The position numbers and the translations under genes were made by a program. The notes under the pieces were generated by a model, which was not told the origin of the DNA, made no database searches, and was given only the letters and a program-made list of their open reading frames with translations. Positions 1,213 through 17,214 of a stretch of DNA of 64,000 bases are shown here, piece after piece; the first letter of the stretch is position 1, and each line of letters starts with the position of its first letter. Origin of the DNA: a virus; IMG/VR virus record IMGVR_UViG_3300002092_001378, positions 1 to 64,000 of that record; one strand, written 5' to 3'.

Positions 1213-2307
1213 TTAGTTTGTTGTTAAGCCAGCCAAACGACGAATCTCAATTACGTTGTTTGAAGTCTGTTCAGTTTTAGTAGTTCTATCTCCAGTAACT
1301 GCTGTCTTTGACTCTGCGATTACAGTTTTAACTGGTGCAGTAGACTTGCCATCCATTACAGGGGAAAGATATTTCTTAAATGCGGCCTCGAGGCGATCTG
1401 TTGGAGTTGACTCCAAGAGTTGCTTCATGACGTTGGCCTTGTCTTTGCTGAGAGGCTTCATTAAGTCGTCAATCTTACGAGTACGCTCGATTGATTCGTT
1501 AATACGCTTTAGCTCAGTTTCTTTAGCATCTGCCTTAGCTTCAGCTAATTCTGCTGCCTGACGAGCTTCGGAAAGCTGCATCTCAATACGATCAAGTATT
1601 GTCTGCATCTTCTTAACTTCGGCACGCTCATTGAGGTGCGTGGCAGTAAACTCGGTTGCAAATGCTTCAAAAATTCTACGTCCAAAATTATTTTCTTTTG
1701 CTTCCTGAATGTCTTCTTTTAGTTGCTTGAGTTCTGTACGTAAGGTGCTATCAGTTGCTTCCTTAACAAGAGTTGATGCTCTCTTAATGAATGACTCACT
1801 AAGATCCTTCAACTTCTTCTTACCTTCTACAATTAGCTGAACCTTTGCACGAGCCAAGTCTGCCTTATCGTCGGCAAACTCAACAATCTCCTTGCGGAGA
1901 CCTTCTGTTACAAATTCGTCTAGCTTTGCTGTAGCAGTTTTAATTGCTGCACGATCAGCGTGTAGTTCAGCAACCTCTTTAGCAAGAGCTTCATTGAGGA
2001 AATCCTCAAAATTAGCAGCCTTTGCCATCATTGATTCTGTAAACTTAACACGATCTTGAGCAATAGCAGCACGCTCAGCAGCAATCTTTTCGATCTCTAC
2101 TGATAGTGATTCTGATACCATACGATCGAGAGCCTCAACCATTGTGGCCTTATCGTGTGAATAACGATTTGCCATCTCTTCACGGATTTCTGCACGAATA
2201 GCATCACGAGCTTCGTCAAGCTTGGAATCCCAAGCCTGCTCTAGAACTTCGCGAGTTTCTTCGTTCAGGATGCCGTTGTCAATTAATGGTTTTAGTGCTT
2301 CGAACAT
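1213..2307 (-). CDS. Prohead core/scaffold protein (gp22-like position)
   Basis: Coiled-coil, E/K/A-rich 364 aa between protease and capsid genes; C-terminal IRRLAGL motif; AGGAG RBS. Confidence 0.8.
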   Translation of the reverse strand: MFEALKPLIDNGILNEETREVLEQAWDSKLDEARDAIRAEIREEMANRYSHDKATMVEALDRMVSESLSVEIEKIAAERAAIAQDRVKFTESMMAKAANFEDFLNEALAKEVAELHADRAAIKTATAKLDEFVTEGLRKEIVEFADDKADLARAKVQLIVEGKKKLKDLSESFIKRASTLVKEATDSTLRTELKQLKEDIQEAKENNFGRRIFEAFATEFTATHLNERAEVKKMQTILDRIEMQLSEARQAAELAEAKADAKETELKRINESIERTRKIDDLMKPLSKDKANVMKQLLESTPTDRLEAAFKKYLSPVMDGKSTAPVKTVIAESKTAVTGDRTTKTEQTSNNVIEIRRLAGLTTN

Positions 2308-2323
2308 TTAATTCTCCTGAAAC

Positions 2324-2953
2324 TTATCTAATCTTCAATTCATTGATTAATCTTGAAACTTCCGTTGCAAGATACTTCTGAGCTAGTCGATCATTGTTTA
2401 GATCTTTAGCCATATCAAACACACGGTGCCCACCCTTCATGTTCATGAGACCCTCATAAACTGCTGTTGGATAGGCACTTGGTGCGCTGGGTTGTGCTAC
2501 GATATCAACTGTGACAATATCAAAATTGCTGACCTGTCCACTTGATTCATTAACGTCACCGCTTCCGCGGCTGCTAACACCAAGCTTTACGCCAGAAGTA
2601 ATCATCACACTTACAATCTTACCCATTGGGGTGGGTAATATTTTCATTTTGCCACAGCCTTTTGATCCATCTAACCACATTTCAGTGATCATGTGACTTA
2701 CTCTATCTAAATTAATACGCAGATTAGTTGGATGATCAACTTCACCTAGCACAGAATAACCTTTGGTAATCTGCTCATTTAGATTTTGTACTGCTCTGGC
2801 AATTTCATGACGGGGATAAACACGCTTATTGGCATTCTCCCTGTCACCTTCAATGAAGATCCCTTTCATATACAGGTCCTTACCTTCATTGGCCTGTATT
2901 GTTTCCATACAAGCCTGATCAAAGCTTAGATTTTCTGTTAAAAAGGGTTTCAT
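2324..2953 (-). CDS. gp21: Prohead core protease, T4 gp21-like
   Basis: Motifs NANKRVYP, LGEVDHP, LGVSSRGSG, DIVAQPSAPSAY. Confidence 0.95.
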   Translation of the reverse strand: MKPFLTENLSFDQACMETIQANEGKDLYMKGIFIEGDRENANKRVYPRHEIARAVQNLNEQITKGYSVLGEVDHPTNLRINLDRVSHMITEMWLDGSKGCGKMKILPTPMGKIVSVMITSGVKLGVSSRGSGDVNESSGQVSNFDIVTVDIVAQPSAPSAYPTAVYEGLMNMKGGHRVFDMAKDLNNDRLAQKYLATEVSRLINELKIR

Positions 2954-2965
2954 ATTATTTTCCTA

Positions 2966-3763
2966 TTACTTTAAGTTAATTGATGTCTTGTTTGTGCCTG
3001 ATGGCTCACTATTAGTTGGCTTCTTAGCACCTGAGAAAGACTTACCAGCGTTTGCACCTGGAACATTCTCAAAACTACCAGCACCCTTTAGCTTGCCTTC
3101 GCCCTTGCTATAAGCATTGCTTGGCTTACCATACTGCTTACCGTCTGGATCTTCACCCCTGCCGCCTTGAGCTAGGTTCTTGGCAGTTCCACCCATGTCG
3201 TTCTTACCAGCAACAGTTGATCTGCTGTTAGTTGAACCACCGATTGAACCATTGCCTACGCCCTGGCCTTCAGTGTTTCCAGGTGTTGCAACCTTCTCAA
3301 CATACTCACGCATAAAGCCTTCTTCTGGCATATCATCCATGCCACCCATGTCACCATGTGAAGTCTCGCCGCCTTCATCACTCATTAGTTTTTCGAACTC
3401 TGCCTTGAGGTCGTCAAGAGCATCTTCGAGATCAACAACACGATCTTCTAGACCTTCTTCACCGCCCATGTCGTCGTCGCCCATGCCGTCGTCCATGTTA
3501 TCCATGTCGCCGTCATCTTCGCCTTCTTCACCGTCTTCTTGGTCCATGCCTTCTTCGTCAGCTGAAATGTCGCCCATCATGTCGTCGGTGGCGTCCATGT
3601 TCTGGTCGTCATCTTCTTCCATGTCATCCTGCATTTCTTCTGCTACAAGGTCATTATAAATTTCACGTGACTTTTCAACAACAAGGTTGTGAAATAGCTC
3701 ATTAGCTTTCTCTGTTTCCTCATTGATGATATATTCAATCAATTGTTCAAACTTATTTCGCAT
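2966..3763 (-). CDS. Acidic prohead core/internal head protein (putative)
   Basis: D/E/M/G-rich low-complexity middle and G/K/S-rich C-terminus; sits in the head module behind a TAAATA motif (3802-3807) and AGGAG RBS. Confidence 0.65.
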   Translation of the reverse strand: MRNKFEQLIEYIINEETEKANELFHNLVVEKSREIYNDLVAEEMQDDMEEDDDQNMDATDDMMGDISADEEGMDQEDGEEGEDDGDMDNMDDGMGDDDMGGEEGLEDRVVDLEDALDDLKAEFEKLMSDEGGETSHGDMGGMDDMPEEGFMREYVEKVATPGNTEGQGVGNGSIGGSTNSRSTVAGKNDMGGTAKNLAQGGRGEDPDGKQYGKPSNAYSKGEGKLKGAGSFENVPGANAGKSFSGAKKPTNSEPSGTNKTSINLK

Positions 3764-3872
3764 GTTGTATCACTCCTAAAAGATTAGTTCTATGCTGAAC
3801 TTATTTACTGCGTAGATAATATCAGTATGTAAAATAGGGTTATTTTGAGTGATTTGGAAAAGATAAGCGTTT

Positions 3873-4091
3873 TTAAGCAGGAGGTGCTGCTGGCTGACCA
3901 TACATCAGCTTCACTCTTTCAATCTGCTCTTTAAATTCCACAGAGCGTTGATCGTTCATTTTTCTTAGCTGGCTAATTTGTGCAAGGGTAAGTCTTGTCT
4001 TTCGTAGGTCTTCGATCTTTTCCTGACTGTCGTCTTTGGAAATATCTTGATAGCCTTTTCTCTCTTCGCGAAACATTTCTGCTAGTAGCAT
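3873..4091 (-). CDS. Small head-module protein (RKTRLTLAQISQLRKM motif)
   Basis: ATG at 4091 follows a perfect TATAAATA; located between portal and core genes. Confidence 0.7.
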   Translation of the reverse strand: MLLAEMFREERKGYQDISKDDSQEKIEDLRKTRLTLAQISQLRKMNDQRSVEFKEQIERVKLMYGQPAAPPA

Positions 4092-4115
4092 AATAAACAA
4101 GCACCTTGTATTTTA

Positions 4116-4123
4116 TATTTATA
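4116..4123 (-). promoter_or_regulatory. T4-type late promoter TATAAATA overlapping the portal stop codon
   Basis: Plus-strand TATTTATA at 4116-4123; a gp55 homolog is present in the window. Confidence 0.75.
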
Positions 4124-5888
4124 TAGCAAGGCTTGGTTCCGAACCACCAGGCGCTGTAGGTGCTGGTGCGCCGCCAGGAGCACCAGGAGCACCACCTTGG
4201 CTAATACCATCCTCTGTTCCAGGGGGTGCTTCTGCACCAGCATCAGCTGATAGATCACCAATTGTATCCAAGTCGCCGGTAATACCACCAGGAGTAACAC
4301 CTACGTTACGCATGTCACTGCCTTGCGGCTTGCTCATGTCAGGAGTGCCGCGCTCTTCATGCCATAACTTCTCATTCTCTGCCATTTCCATTTCATTAAG
4401 TCCAAGATACTTCTTAAGAATGAAACGCTTGGCAAGGAATTCAGTGTCTTTAATGCCGCCAAATGCTGTAATACGCTGACTGTTGAGTTCAATTTCACGA
4501 TAAGCAGCAAAGTTTTGTGGTTCACTGAAACGCATTTCAAACAAACTATTGTCTAAATTAAAGCCTCTCCACTTTAAAAATAGCTTAAATTCTTCATCAA
4601 ACTTGCTACTAATATACTTCTGTAAACGCTTACAATACTCATTGAAACGATATTCCTGAATCAATGCAGTTGTTACTTTACCATCAGTATAGGCACGATC
4701 ACTGTCATCCTTGCCTGTTGGCAAATAACTAGATGGAATACGCAATCCTCTGAACAACTTGTTCTGGAAGTAACGCAAGTCATCAATTTCACCTAGGTTT
4801 TGCCCACCTGGTAATACCTCAACACTTGATCCACGACCGTCCGCTGTCTGAGGGAAGAAGTAATCTTCATTGATTGACAGCGGATTATAGCTTGCATCCA
4901 TTAGGTTTTGCCCGCCGCCACTTTGTGTTGGGATACGACGCTGATGAATTTCATTTTTAACACGCTCAAGGAATGACATCTGCATGTGCGCAGGCATGTT
5001 ACCAACGTCAATTTTAAACACACGACGTTCAGGCGCACGTTGCACACGGTAAATTAATAGTGAGTCTTCAAGTAGTTCTTTTTGCTTGAATACTTTAAAA
5101 ATACCCTCAAGTATGCTAACACCAAATGGCCAGTTAACATCAAGTCCTTCAGTTAAACTACAATGAATAACATGTTCTGCATCAATTGGAAACTCATTTG
5201 TACCAACACCAAAGCGATTATTTGAGTTTAACGAGTCACCGCCAATGCCATTGCTTGTATTATTACGACTTCCGCCGGAATATGGAGCAAAAGAATAAGT
5301 GTCGTTTTTGCCTGGTGGACGAGTAATTGTGTCATTCTGTAAGTTGGGAGCAAGATCACGAACATAGTAAACTTCAGGAACTTTACCCTGTGACTCGTTT
5401 ACAATGATTTTACTGACCTTATTCATTTCACTCCAGTACCACTTGTAAGTTTCTGGATCACGAACAAAAATTTGATCGCCGTACTTTAATACATTGCGGA
5501 AAATTTTAAAGATCTTACGATCAAAGTCGTTTAAACTATACCAAGCAGTAAGCTGTTCTTTTAAAATAGCAATTTCGTTTTCAGTTGCTTCATCATGAAA
5601 ATGAAAGTTAAATGCTGTGTTTGTATCTTCGTTTGTCTGTGTGCAAAATTCAGCTAGAATATCAAGAGCGGCGTTTACTTCACTGTCAAGATCCATGTTT
5701 TCGTATTGTGAATAACGATCAATTCTATTGGGATGTCCGCTGTAAATATCGGGCAACATGCTTTGGTAATTTCTAAATGCAGCCTGTGCTTGACTATCTA
5801 GATATCCAAAGGCATAGTTTGCAGTTGAGCCATTAACTGGGCTCATACTGCCATCGGTAACCACACGAAAATGTTTTGTCCAAGCCAT
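4119..5888 (-). CDS. gp20: Portal protein, T4 gp20-like
   Basis: Motifs LEDSLLIYRVQRAPERRVFKIDVGNMP, EDYFFP, LPGGQNLGEIDDLRYF, LRIPSSYL. Confidence 0.96.
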   Translation of the reverse strand: MAWTKHFRVVTDGSMSPVNGSTANYAFGYLDSQAQAAFRNYQSMLPDIYSGHPNRIDRYSQYENMDLDSEVNAALDILAEFCTQTNEDTNTAFNFHFHDEATENEIAILKEQLTAWYSLNDFDRKIFKIFRNVLKYGDQIFVRDPETYKWYWSEMNKVSKIIVNESQGKVPEVYYVRDLAPNLQNDTITRPPGKNDTYSFAPYSGGSRNNTSNGIGGDSLNSNNRFGVGTNEFPIDAEHVIHCSLTEGLDVNWPFGVSILEGIFKVFKQKELLEDSLLIYRVQRAPERRVFKIDVGNMPAHMQMSFLERVKNEIHQRRIPTQSGGGQNLMDASYNPLSINEDYFFPQTADGRGSSVEVLPGGQNLGEIDDLRYFQNKLFRGLRIPSSYLPTGKDDSDRAYTDGKVTTALIQEYRFNEYCKRLQKYISSKFDEEFKLFLKWRGFNLDNSLFEMRFSEPQNFAAYREIELNSQRITAFGGIKDTEFLAKRFILKKYLGLNEMEMAENEKLWHEERGTPDMSKPQGSDMRNVGVTPGGITGDLDTIGDLSADAGAEAPPGTEDGISQGGAPGAPGGAPAPTAPGGSEPSLAI

Positions 5889-11296: not shown

Positions 11297-12058
11297 TTAT
11301 GAACTACTATGAGGAACAGTATACACATAATCACTCCATCTAATTATTTCAAATCTTCCATCATGATGTTCCACTAATGCTGTACAGGATTCTACCCAAT
11401 CCCCGCAGTTCATGTACCTGATATTAGATATATCCCGAATATTAGCGTGATGAATATGACCACATATAATTCCATCTAAATTCTTGCTCCTCACATAGTT
11501 GGCCAGCGTTGTTTCATAGTCTCCTATGAAGTTCACTGATTCTTTTACTGTGTGTTTAAGATATGAACTCAGTGACCAATGGGGCAGATTAAATTTTGAT
11601 CTAATCTTGCTGACCCAACGACCGATATCTATGCTAACATCATATGCCCATGATCCCAAGTGTGCTAACCATTGTGCGTTCTTCATGACGATATCAAATT
11701 GATCGCCATGTGTAACAAGATATAGTTTACCATCTATGCCAACATGTATACATTCTTCGACTAATATGATATGTCCAAACTCAGCATCGCAGTATTCACG
11801 CAGTAGATCATCATGATTACCTGGGATGTAAACTACCTCAACACCTTTGCGAGCACGACGCAATAATTTCTGTATGACATCGCTGTGGAACTGACTCCAT
11901 ATCTTCTTCTTGCTCATTGCCCAACAGTCAATGATATCGCCCACGAGATATATCTTCTCGCATTCGAAAGTCTTCATGAATTCCAGCAGTTGATCTGCTT
12001 GGCTCATTTTAGTTCCAAGATGTATATCAGATATGAATACAGATCGATAAGAATTCAT
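11297..12058 (-). CDS. plcP: PlcP-type intracellular phospholipase C (LpxH-like metallophosphoesterase)
   Basis: FISDIHLG, LVGDIID, VIQKLLRRARKG, IPGNHD, HGDQFD, WSLSSYLK, CGHIH, YMNCGDWVESCTALVE. This motif series matches the PlcP/SMc00171 subfamily as I recall it. Confidence 0.8.
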   Translation of the reverse strand: MNSYRSVFISDIHLGTKMSQADQLLEFMKTFECEKIYLVGDIIDCWAMSKKKIWSQFHSDVIQKLLRRARKGVEVVYIPGNHDDLLREYCDAEFGHIILVEECIHVGIDGKLYLVTHGDQFDIVMKNAQWLAHLGSWAYDVSIDIGRWVSKIRSKFNLPHWSLSSYLKHTVKESVNFIGDYETTLANYVRSKNLDGIICGHIHHANIRDISNIRYMNCGDWVESCTALVEHHDGRFEIIRWSDYVYTVPHSSS

Positions 12059-12762
12059 CTAAAGTCCTTGTAGGTATTAGTAACTGCTCGATCTTTAAAT
12101 GTCACTGATAGATAATTCTTAAAGTATAACCAAGTTGTAGTAAACACCCCTTGATCTTTTAATCGTCTTGGACTTGAATGTAATTTTAGTTTCATAGCAA
12201 ACTTGATCATACCAAATTTTTCAAGACGTTTAGCAGTCATTGTGTCTTCACCATAGAACGCTATACTTGTATCATATCCATTGGTGGCATCTAATGCTGC
12301 TTTCTTTATTAGGGAATTGCCGCCCTGTAAGAACACACCAATGAAACTGTTGCTGAACCAAGCAAGATAATAATATATCTTAGTTGATATAGCAAGCGAA
12401 CGTGACACATCATCATATACTAAAGGACCTGTAACAGCAGCAACTCCAGGATCGGCAATTTTTAACAATGCTGTTTCAATCCAGCCGTCGCATAATCTCG
12501 AATCAGCGTCAATGTTTGCTATTAGATTATATTGGGCAGTCTCGTAGCCTTTCTGACGGGCGAATACAACTCCTTTTTGTCTTTCTGAAACAACTGTTAC
12601 ACCTTCTTGCATGGCAATTAGAACAGTTTGATCTGTGCAGTTATTGTCAACTACGATGATCTCGTAGTGAGGGAGACTGGAAGCCTCCCTCACGATTGAG
12701 CGTATACAATCTCTTATATACTTCTCTTCATTATAACATGGGATAACGAATGATATGCCCAT
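12055..12762 (-). CDS. Family 2 glycosyltransferase
   Basis: ISFVIPCYNEE, VVDNNCTD, DADS (DxD), GEDT; 4-bp overlap with plcP. Confidence 0.9.
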   Translation of the reverse strand: MGISFVIPCYNEEKYIRDCIRSIVREASSLPHYEIIVVDNNCTDQTVLIAMQEGVTVVSERQKGVVFARQKGYETAQYNLIANIDADSRLCDGWIETALLKIADPGVAAVTGPLVYDDVSRSLAISTKIYYYLAWFSNSFIGVFLQGGNSLIKKAALDATNGYDTSIAFYGEDTMTAKRLEKFGMIKFAMKLKLHSSPRRLKDQGVFTTTWLYFKNYLSVTFKDRAVTNTYKDFR

Positions 12763-12763
12763 G

Positions 12764-13771
12764 TTAGTGCTTTATGGTTGTCCATACTGTATTCTTGATT
12801 TCCTTAACTACATTAGCAGGCATTGGAATATAGTCAAGGTCTTCAGCAGACTTATTTCCATTACTAAACGCCCAGTTAAAGAAAGCAATAGCTTCTCTGC
12901 TGGCTGCGGGATCTGAAGGTTCAGAATACATTAGGACGAATGTGGCAGCAGTCAAGGGCCAGGAATCATCTCCCAACTGATTAGTAAGCACTACACCGAA
13001 TCCCGGAACGCTGTTCCAATCTGCCTTGGCTGCTGCCGAGCTGAATGACTTAACTGTTGGCTCAACTGTCTTGCCAGCAGCATTGATCATTTTAGTAGTT
13101 GTTAGTTTATTTTGTTTGGCATAAGCATATTCAACATAACCAATGCTGTTCTTGCTCTGCTGTACATTAGATGCTACACCGTCATTGCCCTTAGCACCTA
13201 CACCAACTGGCCATTCAATAGCAGCGCCTTCTCCTGGTCCATTCTTCCAATCAGCACTAACCTTGCTTAGATAGTTAGTAAAGTTAAATGTAGTCCCGGA
13301 TCCATCACTACGACGCACTACTGTGATTGGTGCATCGGGTAGCTTAACTGCTGGGTTTAACTTTGCGATAGCAGTATCGTTCCACTTCTTGATCTTGCCA
13401 AGATAGATATTAGCAATAGTAGTGCCGTCGAGTGTTAAATCACCACTCTTAACTCCTTCAACATTGATAGCTAGTACAATACCGCCCATAATCTCTGGCC
13501 ATTGGACGAAACGGTACTTTAGTAGATCCTCTAGTCCCAGTGGCATATCAGTAGCTCCAAATGTCACTGTCTTGGCCTGTATCTGCTTGATACCAGCACC
13601 ACTACCTATTGATTGATAATTTACTTGATTACCAGTTGAAGTCTTATATGAATCTGACCATTTTGAAATAATAGGGAAAGCAAATGTTGAACCTGCTCCT
13701 GTAATATCTGCTGCTTGTACCGATGTTGCAAGCATCAAACTTGCAATTGCTAATGTCATCTTCTTTAGCAT
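12764..13771 (-). CDS. pstS: Phosphate ABC transporter periplasmic binding protein PstS
   Basis: Signal peptide, ITGAGSTF, NYQSIGSGAG, RRSDGSGTT, GAKGNDGV, IGYVEYAY. Confidence 0.97.
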   Translation of the reverse strand: MLKKMTLAIASLMLATSVQAADITGAGSTFAFPIISKWSDSYKTSTGNQVNYQSIGSGAGIKQIQAKTVTFGATDMPLGLEDLLKYRFVQWPEIMGGIVLAINVEGVKSGDLTLDGTTIANIYLGKIKKWNDTAIAKLNPAVKLPDAPITVVRRSDGSGTTFNFTNYLSKVSADWKNGPGEGAAIEWPVGVGAKGNDGVASNVQQSKNSIGYVEYAYAKQNKLTTTKMINAAGKTVEPTVKSFSSAAAKADWNSVPGFGVVLTNQLGDDSWPLTAATFVLMYSEPSDPAASREAIAFFNWAFSNGNKSAEDLDYIPMPANVVKEIKNTVWTTIKH

Positions 13772-13815
13772 AAATGAGACTCCTTGTTATGCGAGCCTTA
13801 TTTAAACACACTAAT

Positions 13816-13833
13816 ATGACGGTTTTATTACAA
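13816..13833 (-). promoter_or_regulatory. Pho box (PhoB binding site) upstream of pstS
   Basis: Minus strand TTGTAAT-AAAA-CCGTCAT versus consensus CTGTCAT-A(A/T)A(T/A)-CTGTCAY, with correct 11-bp periodicity, 45 bp upstream of the pstS ATG. A TAAATA motif follows at 13799-13804. Confidence 0.75.
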
Positions 13834-13852: not shown

Positions 13853-15619
13853 TTAATCAGAAAAATTATCGTAGCTGGTGAAGCCATTTTCCTTGATAAC
13901 CTTCATGACATTGTTGACACGCCCAGCTAATTCATCCTTGTGACTTACAAGGAAAATGCTTTTATTGCGCTCACGTGCCATCTTCTTGAGAATAGCTAGA
14001 CTGTTCTCAACACCACTTGAGTCCATGCCACTGTCAATCATCTCGTCAATAAACAGTAGATTGATGGGGCTATACAAGCTTTCCCATACATCTCTAAATG
14101 CAAAACTTAACGAAAGTATAAGACGATTACGTTCACCACGACTAAGATTATCGAAATCAAGTTCCCTACCTAACTCTGTGATTTCTACTGTGAGATCATT
14201 CAGGAACTTGACTTCATGCGGCAATCCAATTGCCTGTAGATAAGCACCCAGTCGAGTATTGAGATAAGCAAGGTTCTGATCAATGATGCGCTTGCGAACA
14301 AAGCTATCCTTGTTGGTCAGTAGTTTGAGTAGAAACTCCTGATGCTCTTTAAACTGTGTGAGTACATTAATTTGATCCCATGTCACTTGCTCAATTGCTG
14401 TAGTTTCCATGTCAACAATCTGTTCAGCATATGGGTCTTGGTCATCACGTTTACGATCAAGTTGCTCAACCAGTTTCTCAAGTGTACTGCGATGGCTTAA
14501 TGCTTTCTCTAAGGTGTCATAGATAACCTTAGGAGCAGTTACAATTGAACCAATGCTATTCAATTGATCCTGATACTCATTGGCTTTCTCTTGAAGAGCA
14601 AGCATTTGAGTTTGGCAATCGCTATATTGCTTGACTTTGCCTTCCAGTATCATACCTTTATTGGCATCATGCAGTGTTGATCCACAAGCATAACAAGTAT
14701 GATTGTTGAGATCTTCTATTTCTTCTGCGAGCTTCTGATACCGCTTTTCTTCTTTGGCATAGTCAGCTGTTAAGCTGCGCAGCCACTTGTCGCATTCTGT
14801 TTTCTTTTTAACACGTTCATGATAAGCAGTTAATTCCTTGTGAGCCAGGATCTCAGCTTCAATATCAACATTGGCGAGGTCCATTAGCCCACGCTCAAGT
14901 GTCAGTACATCCTCTTCATGTTTGGAATGCCAGAGCTTTTGCCTGCGCTTGAGATTTTCAATTTGATCTTCAATGCGCTTGTTGGCATCCTGTACTGCCT
15001 TGATGCGAATCTCTTCCTCGGTAATTGATTCCTTAGTGGACTTTACAAATTCCTTAAGCCTATCAGCTTTTTCACTGAGAATTGTAATGCCCAATAGCTG
15101 CTCAATAACATTGCGTTGATCATTGGCTCGCATACTGAGGAAAGGTTCAGTGTAAGTGTTGAGCGCAAGAACGTGCTTAAACATGTCATGTGACATGCCC
15201 AATATACGTTCGATGTCCTGCTGTGTCTCACGACTATCGCCTTGACTATCATCCTGATAGCCATCTTTCTCTTCGCCGTTAACATACAGTTTTAGGACAT
15301 TTGACTTGCGTCCGCGCTCAATTTTATATTCCTGTCCATTGACTTCAAAGTCAACGGTCACCATCATATTCTTAGCGTTGGTTTTGTTAATAAGATTATC
15401 ACGTTTGATGTTAGTAAGTGCTTGACCGTAGAGTCCATAGCTCAAAGCATTGATGATTGTGGTTTTACCCGTGCCATTTCTAGCACCAGAATCATCACCT
15501 CCTAAATCTAAGTTTTCACCAAGTACGAGAGTTAGATCTCTACGGTCAAAGTCCACGGCTTGGGTCGCATTGCCCACGCTCATGAAATTCTTTACTGTTA
15601 AGTTTTTAATCTTAATCAT
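13853..15619 (-). CDS. gp46: Recombination endonuclease ATPase subunit, gp46/SbcC/Rad50-like
   Basis: Walker A NGTGKTT, CYAC zinc hook, LSRGE signature, LLFIDE Walker B, VSH. Likely start is ATG 15619. Confidence 0.95.
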   Translation of the reverse strand: MIKIKNLTVKNFMSVGNATQAVDFDRRDLTLVLGENLDLGGDDSGARNGTGKTTIINALSYGLYGQALTNIKRDNLINKTNAKNMMVTVDFEVNGQEYKIERGRKSNVLKLYVNGEEKDGYQDDSQGDSRETQQDIERILGMSHDMFKHVLALNTYTEPFLSMRANDQRNVIEQLLGITILSEKADRLKEFVKSTKESITEEEIRIKAVQDANKRIEDQIENLKRRQKLWHSKHEEDVLTLERGLMDLANVDIEAEILAHKELTAYHERVKKKTECDKWLRSLTADYAKEEKRYQKLAEEIEDLNNHTCYACGSTLHDANKGMILEGKVKQYSDCQTQMLALQEKANEYQDQLNSIGSIVTAPKVIYDTLEKALSHRSTLEKLVEQLDRKRDDQDPYAEQIVDMETTAIEQVTWDQINVLTQFKEHQEFLLKLLTNKDSFVRKRIIDQNLAYLNTRLGAYLQAIGLPHEVKFLNDLTVEITELGRELDFDNLSRGERNRLILSLSFAFRDVWESLYSPINLLFIDEMIDSGMDSSGVENSLAILKKMARERNKSIFLVSHKDELAGRVNNVMKVIKENGFTSYDNFSD

Positions 15620-15642
15620 TAATATCACTCTATATGTTTGTG

Positions 15643-17214
15643 TTAGGAAAGTCTATTAAAAACGTCGCTGCTAGACGACTCATTAAATCTATTCTTCTTT
15701 AACCATTCATAGTAGTTGGGCCAGCATTGCTGGCTAATATACTGATTTCTTGCTTTATTATATGCAAAGAACGCTTCTGCCATCTGCCTATCAGCATCAG
15801 ACATTATAGTAGGATTAAACTTTGATCTATCAACATCACATGCAATACTCATACGATAATACATCTGATGCCAAAAATGAGGCAGTCGTCCCTCAATGTC
15901 TGTGCGCTGCTCATTAACAATGTCTTCAAGCTGTTGCATATCAATCATTGCACGACGACTATCCCACCATGCACCACGACGCTTGCTAAGTCCAAAGTTA
16001 AACAGCAGTCGTAGGTTACGTTCCTCAACAACCAACTGTTGATTCTTATTAAACTGATTCCTTGCTGCATCTACTGTATCCAGCTTTAATGCAGCAAATA
16101 GATCTTCAAGTGATCGACTGTGTATATCAAATGTAGGGGCATCATATGGGTCAACAAATCCAGCACTGATTCCAAGTGGAACTACGTTATCAACCCAACT
16201 GGTCTTGTAATACCCAGGTGACCATTTGATTTGTCTGGGCTGAGCAATACGAACGCCTGCGGTCTCATTTAAAAGTTTCTGTAATGGGACTTCATCGCTT
16301 GTCATGTTTTGATTATAGATGTAACCATTGCCAATTCTGTGATAAAGTTTTACTTTAAAACGCCAACCATGGTCCTCACCGTAAATTTCAGTACCACCTG
16401 TCATTTCCTTAGCGGGATCGTCATATCGTGTGGGACATACCCAAGCAGTATTACAATATTCACTGCCCATGTTATGCCAAGTATTGTTTACTTTACTAAT
16501 CAGTATGCGGTTAAATCCACTTGCGTCAATATACAGATCGGCTGTAATTGTTTGATCATTTTCAAGTACAATACCACGGCTAAAATTGACTACAGTATTT
16601 GTAATGTGTTCACAGTTGCCAGTTAATGCAAGTTCCTTTAAGAACTCAACAGACTGTTCGGCATCAATGTGATAGCTGTAACCCTCATCTGGACGTAATA
16701 CATAATTGCCTTCTGCATTGACGGGGGCAACAGGATTTTTAGTAAAATAGCTGGTTTCGTTAGCTTCCAGGATATAATCGTCAAATGTCTTGTTGTTGTC
16801 GCGATTGATAGTCATCCAAGCTTGTTGTATTCCCACATCACCAGCACGTTTACTCCAGGGTTCATAAAATTCTGGATAATCAAACTTGCCGTAAAAGTTA
16901 GTAAGCGAGCTAACTTTGAGGTTAAAGAATTTACCATAGCTAAAGCTTTTGTGATCCTGCCAAAAGTCAGTGGCAGTTAACCCATATTTGTAGATAGCAC
17001 CGGTACGCCACATAAGCATACGGTCATCCTTAAGTCCCAGTAGGCGTTTCCAATCATACGGCGCACTGTAACCCAGTGTTTCACCTACTCCCAAACGTGG
17101 GTACTTGTCGCTATCAATAACGATTAGCTTGATATTGGGGAAATTGTGGCGCAATGCTGCGGCTGTATACCAACCAGCGAATCCACCACCCACTATGGCA
17201 ATGCTATTAATCAT
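15643..17214 (-). CDS. Tryptophan-halogenase-family flavoprotein (divergent)
   Basis: IVGGGFAGW FAD motif, LGVGE, AIYKYG (catalytic Lys position), YIDASGF, SAGFVDP. The WxWxIP motif is degenerate (WRFKVK). Confidence 0.8.
   Translation of the reverse strand: MINSIAIVGGGFAGWYTAAALRHNFPNIKLIVIDSDKYPRLGVGETLGYSAPYDWKRLLGLKDDRMLMWRTGAIYKYGLTATDFWQDHKSFSYGKFFNLKVSSLTNFYGKFDYPEFYEPWSKRAGDVGIQQAWMTINRDNNKTFDDYILEANETSYFTKNPVAPVNAEGNYVLRPDEGYSYHIDAEQSVEFLKELALTGNCEHITNTVVNFSRGIVLENDQTITADLYIDASGFNRILISKVNNTWHNMGSEYCNTAWVCPTRYDDPAKEMTGGTEIYGEDHGWRFKVKLYHRIGNGYIYNQNMTSDEVPLQKLLNETAGVRIAQPRQIKWSPGYYKTSWVDNVVPLGISAGFVDPYDAPTFDIHSRSLEDLFAALKLDTVDAARNQFNKNQQLVVEERNLRLLFNFGLSKRRGAWWDSRRAMIDMQQLEDIVNEQRTDIEGRLPHFWHQMYYRMSIACDVDRSKFNPTIMSDADRQMAEAFFAYNKARNQYISQQCWPNYYEWLKKNRFNESSSSDVFNRLS

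Follow-up and report, generated by a model that had tools for sequence, protein, structure and literature searches.

Bacteria respond to phosphate starvation with a lipid-renovation pathway in which PlcP, an LpxH-like metallophosphoesterase acting as a phospholipase C, is coupled in one operon to the glycosyltransferase Agt behind a CTGTCAT-type Pho box. Loci include Sinorhizobium meliloti SMc00171, Phaeobacter sp. MED193 MED193_17359, SAR11 HTCC7211 PB7211_983/960 and P. aeruginosa PA3219/PA3218 (PMC4796936, PMC8528852). Phage genes for phosphate uptake (pstS, phoA, phoH) are textbook examples of viral reprogramming of host metabolism, and pstS is a PhoB-controlled auxiliary metabolic gene of cyanomyoviruses. 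LpxH, which shares the PlcP fold, is the UDP-2,3-diacylglucosamine diphosphatase of lipid A synthesis. We found no paper, among those that could be searched, describing a phage unit of plcP and a glycosyltransferase or a viral route to the phosphorus locked in membrane phospholipids. Here, we analysed such a unit in a fragment of a very large uncultured phage. The window is the whole 64,000-nucleotide stretch examined, corresponding to positions 1 to 64,000 of IMG/VR record IMGVR_UViG_3300002092_001378 (101.7 kb).

A pstS-GT2-plcP operon in a jumbo-phage fragment

The original prediction described three translationally coupled genes behind a Pho-box-like repeat, and this observation was confirmed by reading the open reading frames and their junctions directly. 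The following features were identified:

13853..15628, minus strand: upstream neighbour, a gp46/SbcC-like recombination nuclease subunit (phage core gene), not part of the module
13816..13833, minus strand: putative Pho box, PhoB-binding-type tandem 7-mers (TTGTAAT and CCGTCAT separated by AAAA), with a weak third repeat downstream
13800..13808, minus strand: extended -10-like element TGTTTAAAT, 10 nt after the Pho box; no -35 was recognised
13780..13785, minus strand: ribosome-binding site AAGGAG, 8 nt before the pstS ATG
12764..13771, minus strand: pstS, periplasmic high-affinity phosphate-binding protein, 335 aa
12055..12762, minus strand: GT2 glycosyltransferase (GT-A fold, inverting), 235 aa, with a DAD motif; inferred lipid (diacylglycerol or glycolipid) glycosyltransferase
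11297..12058, minus strand: plcP, PlcP-family metallophosphoesterase (predicted Mn-type phospholipase C acting on membrane phospholipids), 253 aa
10314..11183, minus strand: downstream neighbour, a SegE-like GIY-YIG homing endonuclease, not part of the module

The pstS and GT2 genes are separated by a 1-nt gap (TAA-c-ATG), and GT2 and plcP share a 4-nt ATGA overlap (AGATGAAT). PstS was above the curated cut-offs of NF008171 (428.7 bits, cut-off 339) and TIGR00975 (380.7 bits, cut-off 205), was full length and matched PHROG 5385. Its N-terminus has a hydrophobic core and a predicted Sec signal peptide ending at VQA, before AD. The phosphoesterase matched the Metallophos family. The flanking genes are phage genes, including portal, gp46/gp47, baseplate hub and wedge, and fibres. 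The gp46-like neighbour matched PHROG 77 at 348.6 bits and is 50% identical to its counterpart in Pseudomonas phage PA5oct; the endonuclease matched PF19835 at 121.9 bits. No tRNA genes, PhoH or OprO/P porin were found in the window or record, so these gave no clue to the host.

The fact that PstS is 54% identical to enterobacterial PstS and PlcP is nearest to alphaproteobacterial proteins could suggest host DNA joined to a phage contig by misassembly, one of the conditions named beforehand as refuting the prediction. We consider this reading remote. An independent contig from another sample (L004/L223) has the same halogenase-gp46-pstS-GT2-plcP-endonuclease order at 78–98% protein identity, GC content is even across the region, phage genes lie on both sides, and the identical protein is on record on 31 contigs, the longest of 342,840 bases. 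A DNA search of the phage collection, from which the window's own record may be absent, with the 3-kb region found no match.

The putative Pho box TTGTAATAAAACCGTCAT at 13833-13816 (minus strand) was the only match to CTGTCATWWWWCTGTCAT with 3 mismatches or fewer on either strand of the window. It matches 11 of 14 consensus positions and has an A/T spacer. The match count alone is what chance gives (1.22 expected). However, the site lies in the sense orientation inside the 81-nt gap before pstS, for which we estimate a chance of about 6e-4. It ends 10 nt before the TGnTTAAAT -10-like element, and the whole block recurs in three related contigs: upstream of pstS in L004 and L026, and directly upstream of GT2 in L005, where pstS is absent. 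In the four aligned promoters the block GTTTAAATA and the ribosome-binding site are invariant although the flanks differ; the function of the -10-like element is inferred. Reading TTTAAATA as a T4-type late promoter was unsupported, since TATAAATA occurs twice in the window against 7.3 expected.

The phosphoesterase belongs to the PlcP family

Source annotations call the phosphoesterase LpxH, and virus surveys file this gene as the cell-wall gene lpxH, a reading under which the enzyme is a UDP-2,3-diacylglucosamine hydrolase and the pair alters lipid A or LPS synthesis. In agreement with this reading, the LpxH NCBIfam model matches along the full length and the nearest solved structures are LpxH. 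The evidence against it makes it very unlikely. The protein scored only 63 bits against NF003743 (cut-off 134) and 52.5 bits against TIGR01854 (cut-off 190). In 301 Pseudomonadota genomes the hits were bimodal, falling at 177–331 bits (37–58% identity) or at 44 bits or less, apart from one broken gene in two pieces (136 and 90 bits), and many genomes hold one of each kind. A phylogeny of PlcP versus LpxH separated the LpxH clade, with annotated E. coli LpxH, from the 45-row PlcP clade at 100/100. The viral proteins form a clade (98/91) inside Hyphomicrobiales PlcP. No experimentally characterised PlcP sequence was in this tree, so the link to those enzymes rests on synteny and on identity levels quoted in papers.

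Sequence signatures gave the same assignment. GNHD, GHIH and N[CDT]GDWVE are in all or nearly all 45 PlcP-clade rows, whereas GNRDFL and GHTHR are in all 8 LpxH rows; the phage protein carries GNHDDL, GHIHH and NCGDWVESC. All dinuclear metal-binding motifs (DxH, GD, GNH[DE], H, GHxH) are intact, D11, H13, D41, N81, H82, H117, H201 and H203 being invariant in two alignments. The nearest bacterial homologues (52–59% identity) are in Alphaproteobacteria (Hyphomicrobiales) and are followed by an Agt-like GT4 and a DUF3419 (BtaA-type) gene, which is the published plcP context (PMC4796936).

At least 235 IMG/VR contigs carry relatives, and plcP, annotated as LpxH, is also present in the isolates Pelagibacter phage Mosig and Synechococcus phage S-SRM01. 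The unit is therefore not rare. Two main layouts were found: of the 80 best viral loci, 43 have GT2 then plcP with a 4-nt overlap, and 20 have plcP then a GT4 that is 44.6% identical to the Mesorhizobium Agt-like gene. The window belongs to a 13-row GT2-linked subclade (100/99) nested among GT4-linked forms. Specific to this case are the single Pho-box operon and the evidence that GT2 displaced or joined GT4. pstS is an occasional add-on to a GT2-plcP core rather than part of a fixed triad.

The GT2 partner and the inferred function of the operon

The glycosyltransferase matched PF00535 at 85.7 bits. It also matched PF13506 (Glyco_transf_21) at 26.9 bits (cut-off 21.7), but only over residues 68-185 and far below the PF00535 score. 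No transmembrane-level hydrophobic stretch was present (maximum Kyte-Doolittle mean over 19 residues, 1.2). It is not an orthologue of Agt (GT4), nor is it BtaAB, and it does not appear to be an orthologue of Pgt (GT21). The five bacterial genomes with near PlcP have no close GT2 homologue, and the best GT2 match in the 301 Pseudomonadota genomes was 65 bits. The AlphaFold model (pLDDT 96.7) gave only generic GT-A matches in fold searches, the best being the membrane GT2 PcManGT (Z 22.3), and cluster names for GT2 relatives were uninformative. All but one of the full-length viral relatives of the GT2 have plcP directly downstream, down to plcP 32–45% identity and in at least four different genomic contexts. 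The pair is therefore a functional unit, but diacylglycerol as the acceptor remains inferred.

We propose, with moderate confidence, that this is a phage-borne phosphate-stress operon read by the PhoB of its host. When the infected Gram-negative host is phosphate-starved, PhoB would bind the Pho box and drive one transcript of the three coupled genes. PstS would be exported to the periplasm and feed the host PstCAB transporter, and PlcP, as a cytoplasmic or peripheral Mn-dependent phospholipase C, would cleave membrane phospholipids into diacylglycerol and phospho-head groups, releasing lipid phosphorus for phage nucleotide synthesis. The GT2 would glycosylate the lipid product, either diacylglycerol itself or a monoglycosyl-diacylglycerol, so that the membrane is refilled with phosphorus-free glycolipid and stays intact until lysis. 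The data presented establish the gene identities, their coupling, membership of the PlcP family, conservation of the GT2-plcP pair and recurrence of the promoter block; PhoB binding and control, the enzyme activities including Mn-dependent phospholipid hydrolysis, the GT2 acceptor and the fate of the phosphorus are inferred. The interpretation given in the original prediction was thus partly supported: its gene order, coupling, Pho box, PlcP-type assignment and the absence of such a phage unit from the papers found held, whereas use of diacylglycerol by the GT2 and the feeding of freed phosphorus into DNA synthesis remain inferences.

Alternatively, PlcP may act as above while the GT2 does not glycosylate diacylglycerol. 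It could add a second sugar to a monoglycosyl-diacylglycerol made by a host or phage Agt, or act on another membrane acceptor such as a polyprenyl phosphate, an LPS precursor or a carotenoid-type lipid, and would then change the cell surface, for example to exclude superinfecting phages. We regard this as possible but less likely. L026 carries GT2, plcP and an Agt-like GT4, which follows plcP at the position of the endonuclease here, so GT2 may not simply replace Agt. The membrane mannosyltransferase PcManGT is the best structural match, a weak PHROG match to GtrB-like O-antigen conversion was found, and an Atlas neighbour cluster is named as a carotenoid glycosyltransferase. Members of the GT2 family also occur fused to other domains; long members were examined as possible GT2-PlcP fusions, but the partners were UbiA prenyltransferase, GT4, alpha/beta hydrolase, polysaccharide deacetylase, PAP2_C or a second GT2. 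The GT4 domains of the GT4+GT2 fusions are only 22–24% identical to Agt-type GT4, giving no usable Rosetta-stone argument. Against this alternative, the strict GT2-plcP adjacency with a 4-nt overlap across deep divergence points to consecutive steps on one substrate stream, no GT4 was found in the 101.7-kb record, so that a host enzyme would be needed, and the GT2 has no transmembrane segment, unlike GtrB.

A second alternative is that the pair serves membrane take-over or lysis rather than phosphorus supply, PlcP breaking down inner-membrane phospholipid or making diacylglycerol for another purpose, with an incidental link to pstS. Most relatives lack both pstS and a recognisable Pho box, and sit instead in operons with nrdB and a non-specific nuclease, or with a cyclase and curli cassette. 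We nevertheless consider this unlikely: here and in L004, L005 and L026 the pair is behind a Pho box, pstS is repeatedly recruited next to it, coupling to nrdB and a nuclease fits nucleotide supply equally well, and a glycosyltransferase partner makes sense for refilling the membrane, not for destroying it.

More tentatively, the 235-aa GT2 could represent a previously unrecognised family of diacylglycerol glycosyltransferases tied to PlcP in viruses. Being a GT2, it would work by an inverting mechanism and give the opposite anomer to a retaining GT4 such as Agt. With PlcP it would let phages of many lineages rebuild the host inner membrane on demand, making membrane lipid phosphorus a routine phosphorus source for large phages in phosphate-poor waters and changing membrane properties seen by competing phages.

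By a rough estimate from textbook cell-composition figures, the phospholipid phosphorus of one cell is of the same order as the phosphorus needed for a burst of roughly 340-kb genomes. If the enzymes work as inferred, infected cells in phosphate-poor waters would change their lipid composition under viral control, which bears on how phosphorus-free lipids in field samples are read as markers of bacterial phosphorus stress. The 'lpxH' entries in viral gene surveys, now filed under lipopolysaccharide synthesis, would need to be re-read, and the GT2 would be a candidate new lipid glycosyltransferase family.

Comparison with described phosphate and lipid systems

Like the pstS of cyanomyoviruses, the phage gene encodes a periplasmic phosphate-binding protein apparently expressed from a host Pho-regulon promoter, and the protein is 33–36% identical to cyanophage PstS. 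It is, however, of the proteobacterial type, being over the PRK10918 cut-off in addition to its similarity to enterobacterial PstS; the Pho box is the proteobacterial CTGTCAT type, and the gene heads an operon with predicted lipid enzymes. Compared with LpxH, the phosphoesterase has the same predicted metallophosphoesterase fold, with a helical insertion at 120-191 at the position of the lipid-binding lid of LpxH, and LpxH chains were the top 25 Foldseek matches, but sequence identity is only 22–31%.

The plcP genes of the viral plcP-GT4 modules, of Pelagibacter phage Mosig (EXVC030M) and of Synechococcus phage S-SRM01 belong to the same viral clade and are annotated in GenBank as LpxH-type hydrolases. 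The 20 loci with GT4 keep the bacterial order. Mosig has pstS and plcP back to back, but its pstS is divergently transcribed and it has no adjacent glycosyltransferase. Phosphate-related flexible genomic islands of marine HIMB59 Alphaproteobacteria combine pstS, phoBR, an 'LpxH' and a glycosyltransferase, and vary with phosphate availability (PMC10734472); these islands are cellular, and the gene is read there as LpxH.

The bacterial PlcP-Agt pathway shares with the phage locus a PlcP-family metallophosphoesterase coupled in one operon to a glycosyltransferase behind a Pho box. We had suspected that P. aeruginosa Agt1 (PA3218) might be a small GT2 like this one, but it is an Agt homologue (PMC8528852). 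The phage locus differs in being carried by a virus, in joining pstS to the same predicted transcript, and in having a 235-aa GT2 placed upstream and overlapping plcP, where in bacteria a roughly 340-aa GT4 Agt lies downstream.

Organisation of the operon and identity of its genes

The DNA analysed is the first 64 kb of a 101.7-kb IMG/VR virus record rated about 29% complete by CheckV, indicating that it is a fragment of a jumbo phage. The identical phosphoesterase is on record on 31 contigs, the longest of which is 342,840 bases. The region of interest was flanked by phage genes encoding the portal, a baseplate protein, a gp46/gp47-type SbcCD nuclease, baseplate hub and wedge proteins, and fibres. 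The gp46 was 50% identical to that of Pseudomonas jumbo phage PA5oct and 45-46% identical to those of Agrobacterium and Sinorhizobium jumbo phages. A search of the 64 kb revealed no tRNA genes. The following open reading frames were identified in the region and its surroundings:

12764-13771, minus strand: pstS, first gene of the operon.
12055-12762, minus strand: family-2 glycosyltransferase (GT2), second gene.
11297-12058, minus strand: calcineurin-like metallophosphoesterase, third gene.
15643-17214, minus strand: tryptophan-halogenase-family gene (PF04820, 194.8 bits), located between the gp46 and gp47 nuclease subunit genes; the same order is seen in the related contig L004.
31501-46914, plus strand: a single ORF of 5137 aa, lying among the baseplate and fibre genes.

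Direct reading of the junctions showed that the first two genes of the operon are separated by a 1-nt gap (TAA-c-ATG) and that the second and third are joined by an ATGA overlap (AGATGAAT). The anatomy described in the original prediction, three coupled genes behind a Pho-box-like repeat, was correct.

The first gene encodes a full-length PstS, scoring 428.7 bits against NF008171 (cut-off 339) and 380.7 bits against TIGR00975. The protein has a Sec-type signal peptide, is 54% identical to enterobacterial PstS and only 33-36% identical to cyanophage PstS. The second gene encodes a 235-aa glycosyltransferase scoring 85.7 bits against PF00535, which also touches PF13506 (GT21) at 26.9 bits. The product of the third gene was matched along its whole length by the LpxH models, but at 63 and 52.5 bits, far below their respective cut-offs of 134 and 190.

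Assignment of the phosphoesterase to the PlcP type

To investigate if the third gene encodes a PlcP-type or an LpxH-type enzyme, we carried out four independent tests, which all agreed on PlcP. Similarity searches against 301 genomes sampled across Pseudomonadota returned two groups of matches, one scoring 177-331 bits at 37-58% identity and the other scoring 44 bits or less at 22-33% identity; apart from one broken gene in two pieces, nothing lay between them, and many genomes held one of each. A maximum-likelihood tree of 53 sequences placed the low-scoring paralogues with annotated E. coli LpxH, in a clade separated at 100/100 support from a 45-row clade containing the phage protein. Sequence signatures followed the same division: all 8 rows of the LpxH clade carried GNRDFL and GHTHR, whereas all 45 rows of the other clade carried GNH[DE] and GHIH, mostly with N[CDT]GDWVE. 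The phage protein has GNHDDL, GHIHH and NCGDWVESC. Lastly, the nearest cellular homologues (52-59% identity) were found in Bradyrhizobium, Tardiphaga, Bosea, Labrys, Mesorhizobium and other Alphaproteobacteria. In the two loci inspected, the gene was followed by an Agt-like GT4 and, in Mesorhizobium, then by a DUF3419 (BtaA-type) gene, which is the plcP neighbourhood described by Sebastian et al. (PMC4796936). The tree contained no experimentally characterised PlcP sequence, and the tie to SMc00171, MED193_17359 and PA3219 rests on synteny and on the 46-47% identities that these proteins share with each other (PMC8528852). All metal-binding residues were invariant. The AlphaFold model (pLDDT 80.7) was nearest to LpxH structures and displayed a helical insertion at residues 120-191, predicted with low confidence, at the position where LpxH has its lipid-binding lid.

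Distribution in viruses and association with the GT2 gene

A scan of IMG/VR identified at least 235 contigs with a relative. Synechococcus phage S-SRM01 and Pelagibacter phage Mosig (EXVC030M) carry one as well, annotated as UDP-2,3-diacylglucosamine hydrolase or diphosphatase. In Mosig (locus L001, 4903-6738), a cultured pelagiphage that offers a laboratory system for this idea, the homologue is 49% identical and is transcribed divergently from pstS, the two genes being back to back across a shared 150-nt gap.

Layouts among the 80 best viral loci. One locus, L026, has pstS-GT2-plcP-GT4 and counts in both of the first two rows.
Layout: loci
GT2 then plcP, with the same 4-nt overlap (6 of these also have pstS): 43
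plcP then a GT4, 44.6% identical over its full length to the Mesorhizobium Agt-like protein: 20
plcP alone, or the locus is cut: the rest

Both glycosyltransferase types therefore sit in one locus in the close relative L026 (IMGVR_UViG_3300032285_003068, 2058-5643), where the GT4 following pstS-GT2-plcP is Agt-like. A third layout was seen in the viral loci L272, L274, L275, L278, L280 and L289, in which plcP (37-49% identical) is followed by a different GT2, only 25-28% identical to the one described here; L289 also has pstS nearby. In the relative L083 (5597-6729), a cytidylyltransferase-like gene (PF01467) overlaps the start of plcP and might activate the phospho-head group that PlcP would release. 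In the tree, the viral proteins formed one clade (98/91; 92/87 with Mosig) nested in Hyphomicrobiales PlcP, and the GT2-linked proteins formed a 13-row subclade (100/99) nested among GT4-linked ones. The simplest history is one capture of a bacterial plcP-agt unit by a phage lineage, followed by acquisition of GT2 and usually loss of GT4.

The strongest evidence for a functional pair came from a converse scan starting from the GT2 family. All but one of the full-length viral relatives of 42% identity or more had plcP immediately downstream (the sole exception among full-length relatives is L267, at 39%). This adjacency held even where GT2 had diverged to 42-45% and plcP to 32-42% identity, and behind four different upstream neighbours: gp46, pstS, nrdB and a CHASE2 cyclase. 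In the relative L007 (4206-7547), nrdB, GT2, plcP and an Endonuclease_NS (non-specific DNA/RNA nuclease) gene are joined by overlaps, which places the lipid pair inside a nucleotide-supply operon in many relatives. In other relatives (L015, 2685-6729; L066, 4311-7729), plcP, with GT2 or GT4, follows a CHASE2-adenylate/guanylate cyclase, and curlin-repeat and FecR-domain genes lie nearby, in a viral curli-type cassette.

By contrast, the acceptor of the GT2 could only be inferred. The five bacterial genomes with near PlcP contained no GT2 match better than E = 1e-8, and only 2 of the 301 Pseudomonadota genomes reached 65 bits. The family comprised about 159 clusters at E < 1e-30; most were stand-alone proteins of about 240 aa, and a few were fused to GT4, UbiA, PAP2_C, a hydrolase, a deacetylase or a second GT2. 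The predicted structure was excellent (pLDDT 96.7) but matched GT-A enzymes in general, the best match being the membrane mannosyltransferase PcManGT (Z 22.3, rmsd 2.7 over 213 residues). No transmembrane stretch was found. The helix at 121-140 and the C-terminal helix are rich in aromatic residues, which we infer would suit an interfacial enzyme.

Predicted Pho box, proposed mechanism and known systems

The sequence TTGTAATAAAACCGTCAT (13833-13816, minus strand) matched 11 of the 14 specified positions of CTGTCAT-N4-CTGTCAT with an AAAA spacer. It was the only such site (3 mismatches or fewer) on either strand of the 64 kb. Since one site is what chance gives (1.22 expected), the argument for a Pho box rests on position and conservation. 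The site lies in the sense orientation in the 81-nt gap before pstS and ends 10 nt before TGTTTAAAT, an extended -10-like element, and an AAGGAG ribosome-binding site sits 8 nt before the ATG. The block formed by the Pho box, 10 nt, GTTTAAATA and AAGGAG was conserved in the related contigs L004, L026 and L005. In L026 the upstream sequence is unrelated, and the site is a better one, with 2 mismatches and a clearer third repeat; in L005 pstS is absent and the block directly precedes GT2. The putative promoter thus travels with the GT2-plcP core. Most more distant relatives lacked it and were instead overlapped with nrdB or a cyclase operon, indicating that Pho control would be a feature of this sublineage and not of the module in general. 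An alternative reading as a T4 late promoter received no support, as the T4 late-promoter octamer TATAAATA occurred only twice in the 64 kb against 7.3 expected; this phage probably uses another late-promoter motif.

We propose that PhoB-dependent transcription would yield PstS for phosphate uptake, PlcP to cleave phospholipids to diacylglycerol and phospho-head groups, and GT2 to turn the lipid product into phosphorus-free glycolipid. The original prediction, that under phosphate limitation the phage boosts phosphate uptake, mines host phospholipids for phosphorus for DNA synthesis and back-fills the membrane with glycolipid, was partly supported. The identities of the genes, the pairing of GT2 with plcP and the recurrence of the promoter block were established by the analysis, while PhoB control, the enzymatic activities, the acceptor of the GT2 and the fate of the phosphorus are inferred.

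Literature searches for plcP with phage, pstS or viral lipid remodelling found only work on bacterial PlcP and on how host lipid remodelling affects phages, and the pelagimyophage survey does not mention the gene. Virome studies list 'lpxH' (K03269) among the lipopolysaccharide genes of viruses (PMC9611531, PMC10653327), and a study of HIMB59 phosphate islands reads a cellular 'LpxH' plus glycosyltransferase in the same way (PMC10734472). As established for these families, GT2 enzymes invert the anomeric configuration, whereas GT4 enzymes such as Agt retain it; a GT2 product would therefore differ in anomer from an Agt product.
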